Positions 12,901 to 60,700 of a DNA stretch of 64,000 nt are shown here, in pieces. A model generated the notes under the pieces. The model searched no databases and was not told the DNA's origin. It worked only from the letters and a program-made list of their open reading frames with translations. The stretch is from Thermoplasmatota archaeon (lineage in GTDB: Archaea > Thermoplasmatota > E2 > JACPAO01 > JAHFTW01): assembly GCA_038046725.1 (NCBI GenBank), contig JBBSVQ010000040.1, positions 9,526-73,525 of the forward strand. The letters are read 5' to 3'. A program made the position numbers and the translations under genes. Numbering within the stretch: position 1 is the first letter of the stretch; each line of letters opens with the position of its first letter.

Positions 12901-12959
12901 GAGGACCCGATGGTCGTCCCTCGGGCAAGAACGTTGCGCTTGCCGTGGGGCCGACCGGA

Positions 12960-13015
12960 CCACGACTTGCACGAAGGCCACGAACCAGGCTTCGTGCGGT
13001 TCGTGCAATTCGTGG
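12960..13015. repeat. 9-nt-unit hairpin element, CACGAA variant
   Basis: CCACGACTT-GCACGAAGG-CCACGAACC aggc TTCGTGCGG-TTCGTGCAA-TTCGTGG. Lies between divergent gene starts. Confidence 0.8.
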
Positions 13016-13074
13016 TTGGTGAAGGATGGCGCCCGTGCGAAAAAGGCCTTCACCGACGCCCCCCTGGCCATGGC

Positions 13075-48070: not shown

Positions 48071-48268
48071 ATGGTCCGAACCCGTGACGCCACAACCATC
48101 GAACTCTCCGTGGTCCTGCGCGACCGTCTCCTGCGGTTGAAGGTCCACGAGCGTCAGGCCTGCCACGAAGTCATCGAGGAGGCCCTCGACGTCTATGAGG
48201 ACCTCCTTCGTGAGGGGACGCCGCGGGCCGAAGTCTTATCGGCTTCCTCCGAGTCGGCGCCGACGTGA
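48071..48268 (+). CDS. Small ribbon-helix-helix-like protein
   Basis: ORF track. The TTIELSVVLRDRLLRLKV...HEVIEEALDVYE pattern is compatible with the strand-helix-helix of CopG/RHH. Stop overlaps the lipA GTG (GTGA). Confidence 0.45.
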   Translation: MVRTRDATTIELSVVLRDRLLRLKVHERQACHEVIEEALDVYEDLLREGTPRAEVLSASSESAPT

Positions 48269-49224
48269 CGGGACTGCCGAACCTTCCTTTGGCTGGGGCG
48301 AGCCCGTTGCCCGGAAGTGGTCGTCCGAGGTTGCCGGAGTGGTTCAAGGTCAAGGCGCCCAGCGGGCAGGCTTACACGGAGATTAAGCAGGCGTTGCGCG
48401 AGCGCGGCTTGTCGACGGTGTGTGAGGAGGCGCGTTGTCCCAACCTTGCGGAATGCTGGTCGGGGGGGAAGTCGGGGAAGGGGACGGCGACCATCATGGT
48501 GATGGGTGGCGTGTGCACCCGGGGGTGCCGGTTCTGCTCCGTTCCGACGGGCAAACCGGGCCCTCTCGACGTGGAGGAGCCGAGGAAGGCCGCGGAGACG
48601 GTGGGCATCATGGGGGTCGGGTACGTCGTCATCACGAGTGTGGACCGCGACGACCTGCCGGACCGCGGTGCCGACCACTTTGCGAAGGTCATCGAGCGCT
48701 GCAAGGCTGACCACCCGGAGGTCCTCGTCGAAGTGCTGACGCCGGACTTCGCCGGCAACCCGGACGGGCCCCGCCGCATCGTGGCGGCCAAGCCGGACGT
48801 CGTCGCGCACAACATCGAGTCGGTGCGCCGCCTCACGCCGCTCGTGCGCGATCGCCGGGCCGCTTACGAGCAGAGCCTTGCCGTGCTGCGGGCCTACAAG
48901 GCCGCCGGGGCGAAGTACACGAAGACGAGCATCATGGTCGGCTTTGGCGAAGCCGAAGCGGAGGTCCTCGAGACTCTCAAGGACTTGCGCGCCGCCGGCG
49001 TCGACATCGTGACTTTCGGTCAGTACCTGCGCCCGACGCAGGAGGCCCGTCATCTGCCGGTCACGGAATTCGTTCACCCGGACCAGTTCGCGAAGTACCA
49101 GCGCATGGCCGAGTCGTTGGGGTTCCTCTACGTGGCGTCGGGGCCGCTCGTGCGTTCATCGTACAAGGCGGGCGAGTTGTTCCTTGAAGGCATGATTCGC
49201 GGCGCGAACCCGAAGGTGGCGTGA
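48265..49224 (+). CDS. lipA: Lipoyl synthase
   Basis: ORF track. CEEARCPNLAECW and radical-SAM CTRGCRFC motifs. Confidence 0.95.
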   Translation: MTGLPNLPLAGASPLPGSGRPRLPEWFKVKAPSGQAYTEIKQALRERGLSTVCEEARCPNLAECWSGGKSGKGTATIMVMGGVCTRGCRFCSVPTGKPGPLDVEEPRKAAETVGIMGVGYVVITSVDRDDLPDRGADHFAKVIERCKADHPEVLVEVLTPDFAGNPDGPRRIVAAKPDVVAHNIESVRRLTPLVRDRRAAYEQSLAVLRAYKAAGAKYTKTSIMVGFGEAEAEVLETLKDLRAAGVDIVTFGQYLRPTQEARHLPVTEFVHPDQFAKYQRMAESLGFLYVASGPLVRSSYKAGELFLEGMIRGANPKVA

Positions 49225-49727
49225 TGGAGCCCACCGAACTGCTGCCCTACTTCCAGCTCGTGGGACAGATTGCCCTCGTCGTCGGCGCCGGCGTGGCCGT
49301 CTACCAGCTGATGCAGTTGCGCCAGTCGCGCCATTCGGAGGCGGCGCTGCAAGTCATTACGAGTCTGCAGACGCAGGAGTTCCGCGACGCCTTCAACCTC
49401 GTCAATGAATTGCCGCTCGGGGCGACGGCGGACCAGGTGCGCGCCGACCCGCGCGTCGAGACTGCGGCGGGCACCATCATGATGACGTTCGAGACGCTCG
49501 GTGTTCTCGTGCATTCGCGCATCGTTCCCATTGAACTCGTGGACCAGGTCATCGGCGGGTTCCTGCGCGAGTCCTGGCGCCGCCTGGAGCCGTACACGAT
49601 GTGGAAGCGCAAGGCCATCGGCTCCGCGCGTTGGGGCGAGTGGTACCAGTGGCTCTTCGAGCACCTGGCCGTGAACCCGAGGCGCCAGCAAGGTGCGTAC
49701 GAGGTCTTCCGCGAGTGGAAGGCCTGA
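49224..49727 (+). CDS. Hypothetical protein with N-terminal TM helix (DUF4760-like?)
   Basis: ORF track 49221..49727. ATG 49224 overlaps the lipA stop (TGATG). Family assignment is from memory only. Confidence 0.5.
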   Translation: MEPTELLPYFQLVGQIALVVGAGVAVYQLMQLRQSRHSEAALQVITSLQTQEFRDAFNLVNELPLGATADQVRADPRVETAAGTIMMTFETLGVLVHSRIVPIELVDQVIGGFLRESWRRLEPYTMWKRKAIGSARWGEWYQWLFEHLAVNPRRQQGAYEVFREWKA

Positions 49728-50012: not shown

Positions 50013-50465
50013 TTAGGCGACCGTGAAGGTCTGCTCGTCGCTCCAGTAGTGGTGCATCTGCTGGTCCTCGTCCATCATGCGGGTGTGGGCGCGCATGTGG
50101 TACGTGCCGGCCTGCATCGGTGCGGTGCAACGCGCCGTGAACGTGCCGGGGACTTCGCCGCTGGTGTGGACGCAGCCCGTCGAGGCCGTGAAGGCCGCCG
50201 TCGGGTCGGATTGGGTGTTGTTCCAGAAGTGGGCGCCGATGTGGTCGCTCATCATGCCGTGCATGTTCTGGTGTTCGGCCGTCGACCGGACCGTGACGTT
50301 GAACATGCCTCCCGGCGCCATCGGCGCCATCGGCACGCCGGACAACTCCATGTGGTAGCTGTCGGTGCCCATCGGCATGTTGCCGTCGTCCCCGGCCGTG
50401 TCGCCGCAGCCGGCAAGCAGGAGGGTCAGGAGGGAGGCGGTGAGGAGGCTGGCGAGGGTTCGCAT
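50013..50465 (-). CDS. Met/His-rich lipoprotein (possible metal binding)
   Basis: ORF track. MRTLASLLTASLLTLLLAGC lipobox. The mature part has many Met and His (MPMGTDSYHM, HQNMHGMMSDH, MMDEDQQMHHY). Confidence 0.65.
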   Translation of the reverse strand: MRTLASLLTASLLTLLLAGCGDTAGDDGNMPMGTDSYHMELSGVPMAPMAPGGMFNVTVRSTAEHQNMHGMMSDHIGAHFWNNTQSDPTAAFTASTGCVHTSGEVPGTFTARCTAPMQAGTYHMRAHTRMMDEDQQMHHYWSDEQTFTVA

Positions 50466-50594
50466 GACCTTGGCATCGGGCCGGCAGCGTTCAACCTTGC
50501 CGGTCGGCTGCTTCTAGGGCGTGCACCTGGAACCTGAACGTTTTCCAGCGTTGTGCCACACACATGATTGGCTGTTCATCTTTGGACGCTCACC

Positions 50595-50601
50595 CTTAAA
50601 G
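50595..50601 (+). promoter_or_regulatory. CTTAAAG TATA-like box upstream of the E1alpha operon
   Basis: 36 nt upstream of ATG 50637, with GAGGAG between the box and the ATG. Confidence 0.35.
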
Positions 50602-50636
50602 GAACCCCCGACTTCGCGCCGCTTGCGAGGAGTGGA

Positions 50637-51731
50637 ATGGCCGACAAGCCGCTTTCGATCCTGGAGTCCAAGAAGAAGTCCGACCTCGAGTTGGACCTCA
50701 GCGACGCCGACCTGCGCCACCTGTACACGACGATGGTGCGCGTGCGCCGCATGGACGAGAAGCTCATCCTGCTGCAGCGCCAGGGCCGCATCGGCTTCTA
50801 CCTCTCCTGCCTCGGGCAAGAGGCCTGCCACATCGGCGCCGCCTACGCCCTCAACGAGGACGACTGGATCTACCCCCACTACCGCAACCCCGGCACCCCG
50901 CTCCTTCGCGGCGTCTCCATGTTGCGCATGGTGAACCAGTGCTTCGGCAACGCCGCCGACGAAATCAAGGGCCGCCAGATGCCCGTGCACTACTCGTTCA
51001 AGGACATCAATTTCTTCAGCATCAGCTCCCCGCTGGGCACGCAGATCATCCAGGCCGCCGGCACGGCGTACGCCATGAAGCTGAAGGGCACGAAGCAGGT
51101 CGCCATGACCTCCTTCGGCGACGGCTCGTCCTCGGAGATTGACTTCCATTCCGGCATGAATTTCGCGGCGGTCACGAAGTCGCCCACCATCTTCATGCTC
51201 GAGAACAACCAGTGGGCCATCTCGGTCCCCACGAGCAAGCAGAGCGCGTCGGAGTCGTACGCCATCAAGGCAGCCGCGTACGGCATGCCCGGCATCCAGG
51301 TGGACGGCAACGACATCCTCGCCGTCTACAAGGTCACGAAGGACGCCGTGGAACGCGCCCGCAACGGCGAGGGCCCGACGCTCATCGAGCTCGTCACCTT
51401 CCGCATGGGCGCCCACTCGACGTCGGACGACCCGAGCCGCTACTGCCCGCCCGAGCAACTGAAGGAGTGGGCCGCGAAGGACCCGCTCAAGCGCTTCGAG
51501 GCGTACCTGCTCAAGACGAAGGTCATCGACGCCAAACTCATCGAGAAGACGAGCGCCGACGCCGTCGCCGAAGTGGACGCCGCCATCAAGGCCGCGGAGA
51601 AGAACGGCCCGATGCCGCCCGTCGAGACGATGTTCGACGACGTCTACGAGCACCTGCCTGACCTGCTCAAGGACCAGAAGGAGCAGATGCTGCGCGACTA
51701 CAAGGAACACGGAATCCCAGGGGCGCACTGA
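50637..51731 (+). CDS. 2-oxoacid dehydrogenase E1 component alpha subunit
   Basis: ORF 50568..51731 with internal ATG 50637. ThDP motif GDGSSSE...ENNQWAISVP. Confidence 0.92.
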   Translation: MADKPLSILESKKKSDLELDLSDADLRHLYTTMVRVRRMDEKLILLQRQGRIGFYLSCLGQEACHIGAAYALNEDDWIYPHYRNPGTPLLRGVSMLRMVNQCFGNAADEIKGRQMPVHYSFKDINFFSISSPLGTQIIQAAGTAYAMKLKGTKQVAMTSFGDGSSSEIDFHSGMNFAAVTKSPTIFMLENNQWAISVPTSKQSASESYAIKAAAYGMPGIQVDGNDILAVYKVTKDAVERARNGEGPTLIELVTFRMGAHSTSDDPSRYCPPEQLKEWAAKDPLKRFEAYLLKTKVIDAKLIEKTSADAVAEVDAAIKAAEKNGPMPPVETMFDDVYEHLPDLLKDQKEQMLRDYKEHGIPGAH

Positions 51732-51928
51732 TGCTGACCACCAACGAATGGGTGCGCGTCTTGATCTGCATCTTCGGCCCGCCGATGGTCCTTGGACTTG
51801 TGCACGTGACGACGAATTTCTTCCAAGTCATGACGCTCGCCGAGGTCATTCTCTTGGGCCTCGTCGCCGGAATTGCAGGCTCTTTTGGCATTTGGAGCAA
51901 GCGCAAATCGCGCGAGGAAGTGGCCTGA
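51731..51928 (+). CDS. Small 2-TM membrane protein (65 aa)
   Basis: ORF track. TGATG overlap with the E1alpha stop. GAGGAA Shine-Dalgarno-like sequence near its own 3' end, ahead of the next ORF. Confidence 0.55.
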   Translation: MLTTNEWVRVLICIFGPPMVLGLVHVTTNFFQVMTLAEVILLGLVAGIAGSFGIWSKRKSREEVA

Positions 51929-52015
51929 ATGGCCGGCTCCACCATCCTCTACCTCCTCCTCACAGGCGCCGGCTGCTGTGTAGCCGGGGCCTGCTTCGTC
52001 CTCGGAGGCAACTGA
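51929..52015 (+). CDS. Micro-ORF, 28 aa hydrophobic Cys-rich peptide (MAGSTILYLLLTGAGCCVAGACFVLGGN)
   Basis: Own translation; too short for the ORF track. The ATG abuts the preceding TGA (TGAATG). GGAGG lies 8 nt before the next ATG. Confidence 0.4.
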   Translation: MAGSTILYLLLTGAGCCVAGACFVLGGN

Positions 52016-52016
52016 G

Positions 52017-52274
52017 ATGCCAGCAACCCTTGAGGAAAACGCCTTGCTCGCCTACGTGAAGGACCGCAAGCAGACGACGGCCAGCCGCGACGCGCGGCTC
52101 CGGACTTACGGGTCCACCGCCATGGAATCTTTGGGAATTGCGATGCTGATTGCGGGCTTCGCGATCGGCCTGTCTGCGACCTTCTTCAGCCCCCTTGTCG
52201 CCATGGCCCTGTTGGCAGCTGCGTGCACGGCAGTCATCCTCATCATCCGGTCCAACAAGAAGGAGGCCGCCTGA
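52017..52274 (+). CDS. Small 2-TM membrane protein (85 aa)
   Basis: ORF track. Starts 1 nt after the micro-ORF stop. AGGAGG in its last codons, ahead of the next ATG. Confidence 0.55.
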   Translation: MPATLEENALLAYVKDRKQTTASRDARLRTYGSTAMESLGIAMLIAGFAIGLSATFFSPLVAMALLAAACTAVILIIRSNKKEAA

Positions 52275-52469
52275 ATGGACACGGAGGTCACTTGGCGGAC
52301 CATTTGGCAGGCCGTGACGTTCATCCTGGTCACCCTCGCCATCGCCTCCCTCGTCGGCAGCATCTTCCCGTTCGGCCAGGTCTTCGTGTTCCTGTTCGCC
52401 GGCTTGATCGCCTACCTCAACGCGCGCTTCTCTCCCTTCACCACGCCGCAGCAGGAGGTCGCCAACTAA
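52275..52469 (+). CDS. Small 2-TM membrane protein (64 aa)
   Basis: ORF track. The ATG abuts the preceding TGA. AGGAGG in its last codons. TAATG overlap with the E1beta start. Confidence 0.55.
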   Translation: MDTEVTWRTIWQAVTFILVTLAIASLVGSIFPFGQVFVFLFAGLIAYLNARFSPFTTPQQEVAN

Positions 52470-53443
52470 TGCCCGTCATGACACTCATCCAGGCCGTCAC
52501 GCACACCCTCGACCAAGCCATGGGCAAGGACGACAACGTCGTCATCCTCGGCGAGGATGTCGGCAAGAACGGCGGCGTCTTCCGCGCCACCGACGGCTTG
52601 TGGGCCAAGTACGGCGACGCCCGCGTGCTCGACACGCCGCTCAACGAGTCCCTCATCATCGGTGCTGCGATTGGCATGGCCACGTACGGCCTGCGCCCTG
52701 TGCCGGAGATCCAGTTCCAGGACTTCATCTTCCCCGGCTTCGACCAGATCGTGTCCGAGGCCGCGAAGATCCGCTACCGCAGCGGCGGCCAGTACTCCGT
52801 CCCGATGGTCATCCGCACGCCGTACGGCGGCGGCATCCGCGGCGGCCACTACCACTCGCAATCCGGCGAGGCGTACTTCGCGCACACGCCCGGCATCACC
52901 GTCGTCATCCCGTCGACGCCGTACGACGCCAAGGGCCTCCTGCACGCCTCCATCGCCTCCAATGACCCCGTGATGTTCATGGAGCCGAAGAAGATTTACC
53001 GCGCCGCCAAGGGCGAGGTCCCCGAGGAGTACTACACCGTCCCCCTCGGCAAGGCCAAGGTCACCCGCGAAGGCACCGACGTCACCCTCGTCTCCTACGG
53101 CGCCATGCTCCCCCTGTGCGAGCAGGCCGCCATCGCCGCCGAGAAATCGAAGATCAGCTGCGAAGTCATCGACCTGCGCACCATCAACCCCTGGGACCGC
53201 AAGACCGTCCTCGACTCCGTCAAGAAGACCGGCCGCGCCGTCATCGTCAACGAAGCCCCCCTCACCGGCGGCTTCGCCAGCGAAGTCTCGGCCACCATCG
53301 CGGAGAACTGCATCGAGCACCTCGAGGCCCCCATCAAGCGCGTCACCGGCTACGACACGCCGTTCCCGTACACGCTGGAGAACCTGTACATGCCCAACGC
53401 CAACAAGGTCGTCCAGGCCATCGAGGACGTCATCAACTTCTGA
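52469..53443 (+). CDS. 2-oxoacid dehydrogenase E1 component beta subunit
   Basis: ORF 52223..53443 with internal ATG 52469. MPVMTLIQAVTHTLDQAM...GEDVGKNGGVFRAT is typical of E1beta. Confidence 0.92.
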   Translation: MPVMTLIQAVTHTLDQAMGKDDNVVILGEDVGKNGGVFRATDGLWAKYGDARVLDTPLNESLIIGAAIGMATYGLRPVPEIQFQDFIFPGFDQIVSEAAKIRYRSGGQYSVPMVIRTPYGGGIRGGHYHSQSGEAYFAHTPGITVVIPSTPYDAKGLLHASIASNDPVMFMEPKKIYRAAKGEVPEEYYTVPLGKAKVTREGTDVTLVSYGAMLPLCEQAAIAAEKSKISCEVIDLRTINPWDRKTVLDSVKKTGRAVIVNEAPLTGGFASEVSATIAENCIEHLEAPIKRVTGYDTPFPYTLENLYMPNANKVVQAIEDVINF

Positions 53444-53476
53444 GGCTGGCTATGCTCTCCCACATGTTCGCCCGCC

Positions 53477-53546
53477 GAACCACGAAACCCACGAAGCGCA
53501 CGAACGAGAGCGCAGCGCTTCGTGCGTTTCGTGCAATTCGTGGTTC
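53477..53546. repeat. 9-nt-unit hairpin element, CACGAA variant
   Basis: GAACCACGAAA-CCCACGAAG-CGCACGAAC ... CTTCGTGCG-TTTCGTGCA-ATTCGTGGTTC. Lies between E1beta and E2. Confidence 0.85.
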
Positions 53547-53563
53547 TAGCGGAGGCGCCTGAC

Positions 53564-55000
53564 ATGACATTCCAATTCAAGCTGCCCGACATCGGCGAAG
53601 GAATCCAAGAGGGCGAAATCGTCCGCTGGATCAAGAACGAGGGCGACGCCGTCAAGGAAGACGAGCCCATCGTCGAAGTCATGACGGACAAGGCCACCGT
53701 CGAGTTGACCAGCCCGCGCAAGGGCGTCATCAAGAAGTGCCACTTCGCCGAGGGCGACATGGCGAAGGTCGGCCAAGTCATCGTCGAGATCGAGGAAGGC
53801 GCGACTGCCAATCCGACGGAGCCACAGAGCGCGCAGAGTCCGCAGACAACGTCTTCTGCGACCTCTGCGGGCTCTGCGGCCCCGGCGAAGTCCGCCGCCA
53901 AGGACGCCAAGGCCGAGTCCAAACCCGAGGCCAAGAAGGAGGAAAAGGAGGAAAAGACCCTCTTCGAGCTCCCCAAGGAGATGGCCGCAGCGACGAAGGT
54001 CATCAACCGGCGCGGAGCCGCCCCGTCGGCCCCGGCCCAGCCCTCCGCGCCCACCAAGCCGGCTGTGCCATCCGGCTACAAGGCCACGGCCGCGCCCGCC
54101 GTGCGCCGCTACGCCCGCGAGAAGGGCATCGACCTCAACCAGGTCCTCGGCACCGGCCAAAATGGCCGCGTGACCCGGGAAGACCTCGACGCGTTCCAGT
54201 CGGGCGGCGCCCGCGCGCCGCAGGACGCCCCCGCCCCGATGGCCGTCGGCGGTGCCCGCTTTGGGTACACCGACGTCAAGTACAGCACGAACCCGGCCCT
54301 CGAGGAGCGCGTGCCGCTGCGCGGCCTGCGCCGCACCATCTCGAAGGCGATGGAGCGCTCGAAGTTCACGGCGACGCACTTCACGTACGTCGCGGAAGTG
54401 GACTGCGACAACCTCGTTCGCCTGCGCGACTCCGCCAAGAAGGTCGCCGATGAGCGCGGCGTGAAGCTCACCTTCATGCCGTTCTTCGTCAAGGCCGCCG
54501 TCGCGGCGCTCAAGCGCCACCCGGACGTCAACGTCGCCTTCGACGAGAACACCTCCGAGATTGTCAAGAAGAAGTACTGGCACATCGGCGTCGCCACGGC
54601 CACGGACGCGGGCCTCATCGTTCCCGTCGTGAAGGACGCGGACCGCAAGGGCGTCCTCGACATCGCCCGCGAAGTGGCGGACCTGTCGGAGCGAACCAAG
54701 GCCGGCAAGGCCAAGCTCGAGGAGCTCACCGGCTCGACGTTCAGCATCACGAGCCTCGGCAAGCTCGGTGGTGTCCTGGCCACGCCCATCCTGAACTACC
54801 CCGAGGTCGCCATCATGGGCGTCCACGAGATGAAGCAGGTCCCCGTCGTCAAGGAGGGCCAACTTGCCATCGGTTGGCGCATGAACCTGAGCTTCACCTT
54901 CGACCACCGCATCGTCGACGGCTACAACGGCGCCATGTTCGCCAACACCCTCGTCTCCTACCTCGAGGACCCCCAGCTCCTCCTGCTGGAGAGTCTCTGA
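53564..55000 (+). CDS. Dihydrolipoamide acyltransferase E2
   Basis: ORF 53522..55000 with internal ATG 53564, GGAGG 9 nt upstream. Lipoyl domain ([11 protein letters not shown]), PSBD ([14 protein letters not shown]), catalytic DHRIVDG. Confidence 0.93.
53808..53880. repeat. 9-nt-unit hairpin element, GCAGAG variant, inside the E2 linker coding region
   Basis: CCAATCC...GCCACAGAG-CGCGCAGAG-TCCGCAGAC aacg TCTTCTGCG-ACCTCTGCG-GGCTCTGCGGC. Translated as [20 protein letters not shown]. Confidence 0.8.
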
Positions 55001-55001
55001 G

Positions 55002-56480
55002 ATGGGCGTCGTGGAGCAGATGCCGCAGGCGCGCGACGAGAAGCGGGACACCAAGGCCACGGACGGGACATACGACGTCGCCATCATCGGCGCCGGGCCG
55101 GGCGGCTACGTCGCGGCCATCCGCGCCGGGCAACTCGGTTTGCGCACCGTCATCATCGAGGAGACGAAACTCGGCGGCGTCTGCCTCAACGTCGGCTGCA
55201 TCCCCTCCAAGGCCATCATTTCGGCCGCGAAGGACTTCAAGCACGCCGCCGCAGCCGCGGACAAGGGCATCACCTTCGCCGACCCCATCGTCGAGATGCC
55301 GAAGCTCGTCAAGTGGAAGCAAGGCGTCGTGGACAAGCTCACCTCCGGCGTCGCGGGTCTCCTCAAGGCCAACAAGGTCGAGGTCCTCAACGGCCGCGCC
55401 ACCCTGGTTGCCAAGGACCTCGTCGAAGTCAACGGACCGATGGGCAAGCGCACCATCAACGCCCGCAACGTCATCGTGGCCACGGGGTCGTCAACCATCG
55501 AGATTCCCGGATTCAAGTTCGACGAGAAGCGCATCCTGTCCTCGACGGGCGCACTCGAGATCCAATCCGTTCCGAAGCACCTCGTCGTCATCGGCGGAGG
55601 CGTCATCGGCCTGGAACTGGGCTGCGCCTACGCCAACCTGGGCTCCGAGGTCACCGTCGTCGAGATGATGGACCAACTCGTGCCCGGCGTGGACGCCGAC
55701 ATCGCCAAGGGCTTGGAGCGCATCCTCAAGCGCAAGGGCTTCGCCATCCACCTCAAGGCGCGCGCCAAGGAAGCCAAGGCGAGCGCCAGCGGCGTCAAGG
55801 TCACCTTCGAGGCCAACGGCTCCGAGCAAGTCGTCGAGGCCGACTACGTCCTCGTCAGCGTCGGCCGCCGCCCGAACACGAAGGGACTCGGCTTGGAGAA
55901 GGTCGGCGTCAAGCTCGACGAGCGCGGGTTCGTGCCGACGGACCTGCAGCGCCGCAGCAACGTGCCGCACATCTATGCCATCGGCGACATCACGCATGGC
56001 CCCATGCTCGCCCACAAGGCCAGCAAGGAAGGCATCGTCGTCGCCGAAACCATCGCGGCCTCAATCAAGGGAACGAAGTCCAGCGCCGCGGCCGATTGGG
56101 CGACCATCCCCGGCGTCATCTTCACCGACCCCGAGATTGCCACCGCGGGCCTCACCGAGGCGCAGGCGAAGGCCGCCGGGCATGAAGTCAAGGTCGGCAC
56201 GTTCCCCGTCGCCGCTCTCGGACGCGCCCTCGCCGCCAGCGAACCCGATGGCTCCTACAAGGTCATCGCGGACGCCAAGACGGACCGCCTGCTCGGCGTG
56301 CACATCCTGGGCGCCAACGCGTCGGACCTCATCTCGGAGGCAGTCCTTGCCCTCGAGATGGGAGCCACGGCCGAGGACCTCGCACTCACCGTGCACCCGC
56401 ATCCAACGATGTCGGAAGGCATCATGGAAGCCGCCGAGGCGCTGCACGGCAAAGCCATCCACGCGCTCAACCGGTCCTAG
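55002..56480 (+). CDS. lpdA: Dihydrolipoamide dehydrogenase E3
   Basis: ORF track. GAGPGGY FAD loop, redox-active GGVCLNVGCIPSK, C-terminal HPHPTMSE. Confidence 0.95.
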   Translation: MGVVEQMPQARDEKRDTKATDGTYDVAIIGAGPGGYVAAIRAGQLGLRTVIIEETKLGGVCLNVGCIPSKAIISAAKDFKHAAAAADKGITFADPIVEMPKLVKWKQGVVDKLTSGVAGLLKANKVEVLNGRATLVAKDLVEVNGPMGKRTINARNVIVATGSSTIEIPGFKFDEKRILSSTGALEIQSVPKHLVVIGGGVIGLELGCAYANLGSEVTVVEMMDQLVPGVDADIAKGLERILKRKGFAIHLKARAKEAKASASGVKVTFEANGSEQVVEADYVLVSVGRRPNTKGLGLEKVGVKLDERGFVPTDLQRRSNVPHIYAIGDITHGPMLAHKASKEGIVVAETIAASIKGTKSSAAADWATIPGVIFTDPEIATAGLTEAQAKAAGHEVKVGTFPVAALGRALAASEPDGSYKVIADAKTDRLLGVHILGANASDLISEAVLALEMGATAEDLALTVHPHPTMSEGIMEAAEALHGKAIHALNRS

Positions 56481-60556: not shown

Positions 60557-60580
60557 GGCCTGGTCAGTCCATGGACAGGC

Positions 60581-60646
60581 GAACCACGAATTGCACGAAG
60601 GCCACGAACCGCGACGGTTTCGTGCATTTCGTGCCATTCGTGGTTC
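60581..60646. repeat. 9-nt-unit hairpin element, CACGAA variant
   Basis: GAACCACGAAT-TGCACGAAG-GCCACGAAC cgcgacgg TTTCGTGCA-TTTCGTGCC-ATTCGTGGTTC. Lies between argJ and argB. Confidence 0.9.
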
Positions 60647-60700
60647 CGCTGCCGCCCAACCTCGGCTTGATACCCTCCCCCCGCGTCCGGTGAACTGCCC

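Follow-up and report, generated by a model that had tools for sequence, protein, structure and literature searches.

Four candidate micro-protein genes tile the gap between E1alpha and E1beta in an archaeal 2-oxoacid dehydrogenase operon and probably form a translational relay

The operon considered here, for a 2-oxoacid dehydrogenase (OADH), lies in a 64,000-nt stretch of a Thermoplasmatota archaeon assembly (contig JBBSVQ010000040.1), which as a whole we call the window. Its four enzyme genes follow one another on the + strand. The first (50568..51731) encodes E1alpha, the thiamine pyrophosphate-binding component of a 2-oxoacid/pyruvate dehydrogenase E1 (Pfam E1_dh, E=8.6e-95; NCBIfam PDH_E1_alph_x, 405 bits), and the second (52469..53443) encodes E1beta (Pfam Transket_pyr, 6.6e-43; Transketolase_C, 6.7e-43). 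The genes for E2 (53564-55000; Pfam Biotin_lipoyl, E3_binding and 2-oxoacid_dh) and E3 (55002-56480; Pfam Pyr_redox_2 and Pyr_redox_dim) complete the set; E1_dh, Transket_pyr/Transketolase_C, a lipoyl-bearing E2 and E3 on one strand identify the operon as that of an OADH with a heterotetrameric (alpha2beta2) E1. Between E1alpha and E1beta, four open reading frames (ORFs) of 65, 28, 85 and 64 aa, here called o1 to o4, fill 51731-52469 end to end on the same strand, at the coordinates given in an earlier note on this DNA. The start of o1 (51731-51928) overlaps the E1alpha stop (TGATG), and its product has two hydrophobic segments. The product of o2 (51929-52015) is a peptide with a cysteine triad (MAGSTILYLLLTGAGCCVAGACFVLGGN) and one hydrophobic segment. 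o3 (52017-52274) encodes an amphipathic helix at its N terminus and, after it, a hydrophobic hairpin of two helices, and o4 (52275-52469), the last ORF ahead of E1beta, encodes another two-helix hairpin. The o3 and o4 products are identical to hypothetical proteins (NCBI AABY18_09650 and AABY18_09655, respectively) of a metagenome-assembled genome (MAG) labeled "Candidatus Thermoplasmatota archaeon."

The composition of the four ORFs is that of coding sequence. GC content at third codon positions (GC3) peaks in the proposed frame of each, at 0.75 for o1, the lowest of the four, 0.82 for o2, 0.81 for o3 and 0.94 for o4, which resembles the host genes (0.90-0.95 for E1, E2 and E3). With the enzyme genes E1, E2 and E3 as training set, a log-likelihood of codon usage was positive solely in the proposed frame of each ORF when six frames were compared. 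The overall GC content of the cassette is slightly below that of its flanks, as had been noted (61.6% versus 64.0% and 65.6% in the flanking genes). ORF structure and coding signal are read directly from the DNA; so, in what follows, are conservation among relatives, turnover and hydrophobicity. When the 737-nt gap was shuffled, abutting ORFs filled it completely in 2 of 500 trials. Nineteen gaps were examined in this way, namely 18 E1alpha-E1beta gaps of the clade (75-817 bp) and the 120-bp E1beta-E2 spacer of the window, and all 19 are completely tiled, with per-locus shuffles reaching tiling in 0.4-20% of cases.

The segment could nevertheless hold no genes, being a noncoding spacer, an RNA element, part of an antisense gene or an assembly artefact. 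Long ORFs arise readily in GC-rich DNA, two antisense ORFs (92 and 85 aa) overlap the cassette region, and the shortest ORF, of 25-28 aa among relatives, is missed by gene callers in every relative with returned gene calls. However, every frame other than the proposed ones, on either strand, has a codon log-likelihood of zero or below, an Rfam scan of 51400-52800 returned a single chance-level small nucleolar RNA match (E=0.42), and tiling across the 19 gaps goes far beyond chance. The same arrangement recurs in more than 20 independent assemblies (NCBI, JGI, ENA and Logan), which contradicts the assembly artefact that the earlier note had raised as a danger. We regard the absence of genes as effectively refuted and as scarcely credible.

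Successive cistrons abut at every step of the array. The five junctions read TGATG, TGAATG, TGAgATG, TGAATG and TAATG, each exactly as first transcribed, and correspond to stop-to-start distances of -1, 0, +1, 0 and -1 nt; across the clade, junctions in the small ORF (sORF) chains range from -4 to +1 nt. A G-rich Shine-Dalgarno-like motif (GGAGG, GGGGG or GAGGTG) stands ahead of 52 of 54 starts. In the window, the GGAGG/AGGAGG sequence claimed for the end of every ORF is present before o3, o4 and E1beta, whereas o1 and o2 are preceded by weaker G-rich sequences only (GGGGCG and GAGGAAG, respectively), that of o1 being held in the last codons of E1alpha, CCA GGG GCG CAC TGA. The earlier proposal of small, translationally coupled ORFs whose products are hydrophobic and helical is supported.

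The peptides also have similar charged tails. The similarity is real, but the tails are not a shared protein feature, since they arise where the next cistron's Shine-Dalgarno sequence is translated in frame. The codons NAG GAG GYC GCC TGA decode as K/Q/R-E-V/A-A; AAG GAG GCC GCC TGA gives K-E-A-A and GGA GGT CTC TGA gives G-G-L, and the terminal Gly-Gly of o2 is the GGAGG of o3 in translation. The tails EVA, EAA, PEAA, GGL and RCV recur on unrelated ORFs in all relatives, and in relatives lacking a gap E1alpha itself ends PGGH over the GGAGG of E1beta. Because identical tails on unrelated ORFs encode the next Shine-Dalgarno sequence, the tails are a by-product of translational coupling and not a protein motif.

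To place the array in context, we compared 26 related junctions from independent assemblies, in which E1beta is 69-92% or E1alpha 58-94% identical to that of the window. These were drawn from E1beta scans (one genome per species, and JGI metagenome contigs), from contigs of close E1alpha homologs and from the contig of an o3 homolog; the clade tree is a crude neighbor-joining tree of 180 residues. The 22 ingroup loci have zero to four coupled sORFs at the E1alpha/E1beta junction. A Cys-rich peptide like that of o2 is accompanied by one to three other ORFs in the window, L001, L002, L006, L008, L009, L082, L163, L167, L171 and L172, and stands alone in L003, L165, L166, L168, L169 and L170. Hydrophobic ORFs are found without the Cys peptide in L005, L161 and L164 (one each, 67-77 aa) and in L010 (a 17-aa and then a 77-aa ORF), and there is no insert in L162, an ingroup lineage seen on 43 contigs. 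Among sister lineages, E1alpha and E1beta are adjacent in L004, L007, L011 and L013, and hydrophobic ORFs number three in L081 (67, 104 and 101 aa). The array is dispensable, since five clade loci have adjacent E1 genes. Wherever there is a gap, from 75 to 817 bp, it is tiled by ORFs.

Turnover of the array is rapid. Locus L001 has the order a-b-Cys and L163 the order a-Cys-c, despite synonymous divergence (dS) of only 0.21 in E1alpha, and the breakpoints between the two coincide exactly with ORF junctions. Structural turnover outpaces substitution, and the array is a hot spot of gain, loss and rearrangement. In more distant operons (other Thermoplasmatota, Planctomycetota and other groups), E1alpha and E1beta are mostly adjacent or overlapping. 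This comparison of presence and absence, a check that the earlier note had proposed, bears out its reading of an inserted small-protein module, with outgroups and five clade loci adjacent and zero to four small ORFs elsewhere, and adds that the module is lineage-specific.

Tiling by sORFs is not a general feature of E1alpha-E1beta spacers, as gaps of 55-130 bp in Planctomycetota and other loci are noncoding and have no tiling ORFs; nor are the larger inserts of other lineages the same phenomenon, for these hold ordinary genes instead. In a second Thermoplasmatota group (L037:2335-2913, L104, L105, L107, L111, L112 and L117), the insert encodes a 192-aa Ala/Leu-rich, repeat-like protein that resembles tetratricopeptide repeats by eye. 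Planctomycetota inserts encode a 221-aa protein with a lipoprotein-like N terminus (L049:5339-6004) and, at another locus, a 136-aa protein (L076:5561-5971). At L023:2512-3612 a second copy of E1alpha stands between E1alpha and E1beta. The E1alpha/E1beta junction is evidently a permissive insertion site.

The Cys peptide, not the hairpin proteins, appears to be the conserved and selected core of the array. It is 25-28 aa long and present in 17 of the 22 ingroup loci (the window and 16 others, always at the same junction), in six of which it is the sole insert. In o2, hydropathy marks a single hydrophobic segment at residues 2-27, with Cys16, Cys17 and Cys22 and a Gly-rich turn. A hydrophobic N-terminal helix and a Gly-rich turn are common to the copies, and all 16 complete copies have exactly three Cys, spaced CC-x4-C, C-x2-C-x2-C, C-x5-C-x2-C or C-x4-C-x2-C. 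Over six phylogenetically independent pairs, the pooled ratio of nonsynonymous to synonymous change per site (pN/pS) is 0.53 (64.5 nonsynonymous changes over 323 sites versus 47.5 synonymous changes over 127 sites; binomial p=6e-4). A six-frame motif scan of 1.32 Mb of fetched loci found three-Cys peptides solely at the E1alpha/E1beta junction, and viral contigs scanned for one Cys motif gave no matches; the absence of the peptide elsewhere refers to these two scans. A PDB sequence search with o2 returned no match. The ORF is uncalled in every related assembly with returned gene calls, and o2 may also be unannotated in the source MAG, unlike o3 and o4, which have named entries.

Three conserved Cys codons in a short ORF directly upstream of a coupled gene would also suit a cysteine-sensing attenuator, in which scarce Cys-tRNA would pause ribosomes on the sORF and so tune translation of E1beta, E2 and E3. 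The known counterparts are mycobacterial polycysteine leaderless sORF attenuators (Canestrari et al., bioRxiv 10.1101/834739), which are likewise short Cys-rich ORFs directly upstream of operonic genes, and the criterion of that study, two consecutive Cys codons, is found in 7 of 16 copies, the window included. The other 9 of 16 copies have no consecutive Cys codons, however, and ORFs of the o2 type are neither leaderless nor 5'-terminal but lie inside the operon, past a 1.1-kb gene. The genes downstream are E1beta, E2 and E3, not genes of cysteine metabolism, and the conserved hydrophobic helix and Gly-rich turn are features that an attenuator does not need. There is also no conserved structure that would sequester the ribosome-binding site. 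The window copy can form a local GCCGGCUGC/GCAGCCGGG RNA stem, but its fold is not unusual (z=-1.6), and the idea of a conserved RNA hairpin in the Cys ORF was rejected because RNAalifold found 0 conserved pairs over 15 copies. Attenuation by cysteine supply is, in our view, very improbable.

Two further identities for o2 were considered and rejected. On sequence inspection, a lipoprotein signal peptide does not fit, as positive charge is missing from the N terminus of most copies, position -1 is Val or Phe in several, and no more than 8-13 residues would be left as the mature part. The Cys-rich C terminus has a merely superficial likeness to precursors of ribosomally synthesized and post-translationally modified peptides (of sactipeptide/ranthipeptide type); there is no maturase gene in or beside the array, and the sole nearby radical S-adenosylmethionine (SAM) gene in relatives has the lipoyl synthase domains LIAS_N and Radical_SAM.

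The remaining ORFs, o1, o3 and o4, look like accessory genes that are weakly constrained, evolutionarily short-lived, and often gained and lost. Hydropathy gives each of their products two hydrophobic segments and that of o2 one, in line with the earlier prediction; transmembrane calls in this work are hydropathy calls throughout. AlphaFold2 models place helices at residues 5-56 and 59-84 of o3 (predicted local distance difference test, pLDDT, 77) and at residues 2-30 and 34-52 of o4 (pLDDT 71). An exhaustive HMMER search of 1.84 billion representative proteins found a single real homolog of o3, P0122, at 36% identity (z=20); it is encoded in L171 in the order E1alpha, Cys peptide, o3 homolog, E1beta. 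The two proteins keep the same architecture, with a ratio of nonsynonymous to synonymous divergence (omega) of 0.37. A word-based search with o3 matched only o3 itself, a comparison with Pfam DUF3040 (PF11239) gave 18.0 bits, under the 24.7-bit gathering cut-off, and a PDB sequence search gave no match. o4 has weak, above-shuffle similarity to ORFs in L082, L008, L009, L163 and L010, with which it shares an S/T-A/T-W-x-A-G motif ahead of helix 1; a profile search with this family (word-indexed, 5.8 billion proteins) returned just its own five members. A family of first-position ORFs in L001, L163, L167 and L002 shares the motif LRGxxxG and, between L001 and L163, has an omega of 0.47 and a nonsynonymous divergence (dN) eight times that of E1alpha. 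The idea that o1 is a diverged member of this a-type family was discarded (hhalign probability 0.6%). Sensitive searches, which the earlier note had called for, have thus yielded homologs of o3 and o4, all at the same junction, and no link to known families: no match of the four peptides reached threshold in scans against Pfam, NCBIfam, PADLOC and PHROGs (0 matches in PADLOC), and by Pfam and NCBIfam none belongs to a described small-protein family.

Hydrophobicity is kept amid this turnover. At least one hydrophobic segment is present in 36 of 41 sORF products, whose median grand average of hydropathy (GRAVY) is 0.99, compared with -0.31 to 0.11 for E1, E2 and E3. T occupies codon position 2 at a frequency of 0.32-0.45 in the sORFs and of 0.26-0.29 in host genes; read in its alternative frames, the cassette gives no hydrophobic products (GRAVY 0.21 and -1.02). 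As a separate observation, within a given genome pair the sORFs have a dS 2-3 times as high as the E1 genes beside them (e.g. 0.48 versus 0.21, and 1.49 versus 0.3-0.5, for window sORFs and their homologs in L001, L163, L082, L166, L168 and L171) and a lower GC3. The raised dS would fit either weaker selection on codon usage or exchange of sORFs between lineages.

Peptides of this kind, with hairpins shaped like type I toxins, holins and immunity proteins, raise the question of a selfish or imported cassette (a small hydrophobic toxin, a holin, a bacteriocin with its immunity protein, or a defence module) riding a well-expressed operon. GC and GC3 slightly under those of host genes, the highly variable presence among relatives, and a weak holin match of o1 in PHROGs (E=0.003, sub-threshold; the best PHROG result, and for o1 alone) are compatible with such an origin. 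A mobile element would, however, be expected in other genomic contexts too, and the homologs found among 1.84 billion representative proteins for o3 (exhaustive HMMER search) and 5.8 billion proteins for o4 (word-indexed search) all lie at the same junction in this clade. The array has no flanking integrase, repeats or target-site features, none of PADLOC, PHROGs, Pfam and NCBIfam gave a significant match, and the viral contigs gave none to the Cys motif. We give a selfish origin very little credence.

Inserted repeats elsewhere in these operons bear on how the array is maintained. The window contains a family of palindromic repeats (12945-13022, 53477-53546 and 60580-60650) with arms made of CACGAA units 9 nt apart (CACGAAnnnCACGAAnnnCACGAA ... 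TTCGTGnnnTTCGTGnnnTTCGTG). The unit motif occurs 11 times versus 0.07 expected, and for the E1beta-E2 spacer copy the folding energy is -61.9 kcal/mol (z=-5.6). Hairpins in relatives are built of other units, with CACCGAT at L008:5319-5440 (z=-6.25), CACTGA at L009:5446-5555 and CCACGAATT at L002:6975-7113; a further hairpin lies at L171:83-130. The palindromic elements of the window look like intergenic hairpins of the repetitive extragenic palindrome or miniature inverted-repeat transposable element type. The spacer copy in the window, at approximately 53477-53546, is spanned by a 36-codon ORF (53452..53562, + strand), which begins 8 nt past the E1beta stop, leaves 1 nt between its own end and the E2 ATG, and supplies the E2 Shine-Dalgarno sequence in its last codons, GGA GGC GCC TGA. 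This ORF may serve in a relay, although taken alone it could have arisen by chance (42 of 500 shuffles). The mechanical ORF of E2 begins at GTG 53522 within the hairpin element; the true start lies, by alignment with relatives and a GGAGG at 53551-53555, at ATG 53564. Hairpin inserts are thus found after E1alpha (L008, L009 and L171) and in the E1beta-E2 spacer (the window and L002), and 5 of 5 are spanned by abutting ORFs whose peptides are not hydrophobic. That hairpin repeats are bridged in this manner is independent support for a relay of translation through inserted DNA.

The same five inserts can be claimed for a leaner account, in which inserted DNA (repeats and duplications) stays open solely for the hand-over of ribosomes to E1beta and the peptides are functionless, tolerated because at their small size and hydrophobicity they harm the cell little. 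Very fast gain, loss and reordering, as between L001 and L163, speak for it, as do omega values of 0.7-1 in several pairs, complete loss of the array in L162, and the lower GC3 and higher dS of sORFs relative to flanking genes. It does not account for the three Cys retained in every complete copy of the Cys peptide, nor for the pN/pS of that peptide and its persistence across the ingroup. Hydrophobicity as consistent as that observed, with T raised at position 2, is unexpected for unconstrained ORFs in DNA of 62-68% GC, and o3 and its homolog share an architecture at 36% identity. We favor real micro-proteins because a relay alone leaves three invariant Cys, pN/pS below 1 and steady hydrophobicity unexplained. 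Functionless filler is possible but unlikely for the array as a whole; for o1 and other orphan ORFs it is a serious rival.

Termination-reinitiation coupling, as studied in Haloferax volcanii and Escherichia coli, needs overlapping genes or very short distances between them, with approximately 20 nt nearly abolishing it, and gene overlaps are enriched between the subunits of heteromeric complexes (PMC6728339, PMC10666635). We consider it probable that four real micro-protein genes, arrayed in a lineage-specific insert at the E1alpha/E1beta junction, make up the segment and are kept as a termination-reinitiation relay; we read them as a relay because all gaps are chains of abutting ORFs. A ribosome ending E1alpha would reinitiate five times in a row, at o1 to o4 in order and lastly at E1beta, each upstream ORF supplying the next Shine-Dalgarno sequence in its last codons and stops and starts overlapping or lying at most 1 nt apart. 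In this way the relay would hold E1beta coupled to E1alpha across 737 nt of inserted DNA. E1 is an alpha2beta2 enzyme and its ancestral gene junction overlaps; an insert there could keep the coupling only as a chain of abutting ORFs. The peptides, being small, hydrophobic and helical, would most likely insert into the membrane. We infer translation, relay and membrane insertion, the relay from operon anatomy together with the published experiments in other species.

The junctions share with known termination-reinitiation coupled cistrons their co-directional arrangement, their spacing (-4, -1 or 0 to +1 nt), a Shine-Dalgarno sequence in the 3' end of the upstream gene, and an operon that encodes subunits of a heteromeric complex, a class enriched for overlaps. 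The known cases are ordinary gene pairs, whereas here up to five successive steps run through micro-ORFs and coupling is read from geometry. The micro-ORFs seem to exist partly to bridge inserted DNA.

Several observations weigh against an array of functional genes held in a relay. It is missing from five clade loci (L004, L007, L011, L013 and L162). o1 has no homolog among 41 related sORFs (large protein databases were not searched with o1). Constraint on the accessory ORFs is weak (omega 0.37-0.74), omega is near 1 for some individual Cys-peptide pairs, and the ORFs L161_a and L164_a are barely alignable despite an E1alpha dN of 0.028. The ORFs that span hairpins show that the relay constraint alone can make ORFs without a function for the product. 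Finally, E1, E2 and E3 are soluble, so there is no evident partner for a membrane peptide. The link of the peptides to the dehydrogenase is suggested by position only, and it is weakened by this solubility and by repeated loss of the array; loss in L162 and variation from zero to four copies argue against an essential structural role. Our preferred guess, itself rather doubtful, is that the peptides act at the membrane as an accessory factor that is produced in parallel with E1 and can be dispensed with. A bolder combination, which we consider speculative and unlikely, is that the three-Cys peptide is a membrane-anchored accessory subunit or regulator of the archaeal OADH, tethering E1 or contributing thiol/metal chemistry, and that the junction is a nursery in which the need for a relay turns inserted DNA into micro-ORFs, some of which become genes.

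Other features of the region concern gene starts and neighbors. The 50568 start of E1alpha is that of the longest ORF; the true start is probably the ATG at 50637 (MADKPL...), which matches relatives, and E1alpha homologs are 363-384 aa long. Divergent from the operon and upstream of it, a 150-aa ORF (50013-50465, - strand) has a lipobox-like N terminus (LLLAGC), a Met/His-rich mature part and no Pfam match. Relatives carry an unannotated opposite-strand gene of 155-168 aa at the same position, which may be its counterpart. At 48265-49727, just upstream of the operon region, a 319-aa ORF overlaps a DUF4760 gene by 4 nt. Because the L162 gene at the equivalent position has the lipoyl synthase domains LIAS_N and Radical_SAM, the OADH operon probably adjoins its lipoylation gene.

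The canonical OADH operon of the archaeal/Gram-positive type, for example in Thermoplasma acidophilum, has the order E1alpha-E1beta-E2-E3. The operons for archaeal OADH complexes have been discussed previously (PMC3904984). The window shares with the canonical operon four enzyme genes of the same order and domain content, and differs from it in the 737 nt and four extra cistrons between E1alpha and E1beta and in the palindromic element between E1beta and E2. A literature search found no description of sORFs inside OADH operons, and the three-Cys micro-protein at the core of the array is apparently undescribed.

Small single-helix peptides are familiar from other operons, KdpF of kdpFABC, at 29 aa, being one. 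CydX of cydABX, at 37 aa, is another (PMC4325964). With its 28 aa and one hydrophobic segment, o2 falls in the same class of single-helix peptides under 50 aa that are encoded in an operon, translationally linked, under-annotated, and poorly conserved yet hydrophobic. It has no sequence relationship to either, and the partners of KdpF and CydX are integral membrane complexes, whereas the neighbors of o2 have soluble Pfam domains and GRAVY values of -0.31 to 0.11. The present case is also an array of zero to four ORFs that varies among close relatives and is known from sequence alone.

In a concept developed in yeast, de novo or young transmembrane micro-proteins arise from T-rich sequence. Related work has been done in bacteria (PMC10065794). 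The sORFs described here resemble such micro-proteins in being limited to one lineage and locus, with no homologs found elsewhere, and in being hydrophobic, weakly constrained and quick to turn over. They differ in lying within an essential-looking operon and not in intergenic DNA.

Small proteins are badly under-annotated, and a conserved gene of 25-28 aa missed by gene callers illustrates this. The tails carry a warning for such work, as a C-terminal motif common to several small ORFs can be no more than a ribosome-binding site translated in frame. These loci offer a natural series of 0, 1, 2, 3 and 4 cistrons inserted between subunit genes that need matched expression, which makes it testable how far a relay can be stretched and whether the constraint of coupling drives the birth of micro-protein genes. 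Should the three-Cys peptide prove to bind the dehydrogenase, a classic soluble multienzyme complex would have gained an accessory subunit of a new kind; failing that, the locus would still be a clear example of operon architecture shaping inserted DNA.

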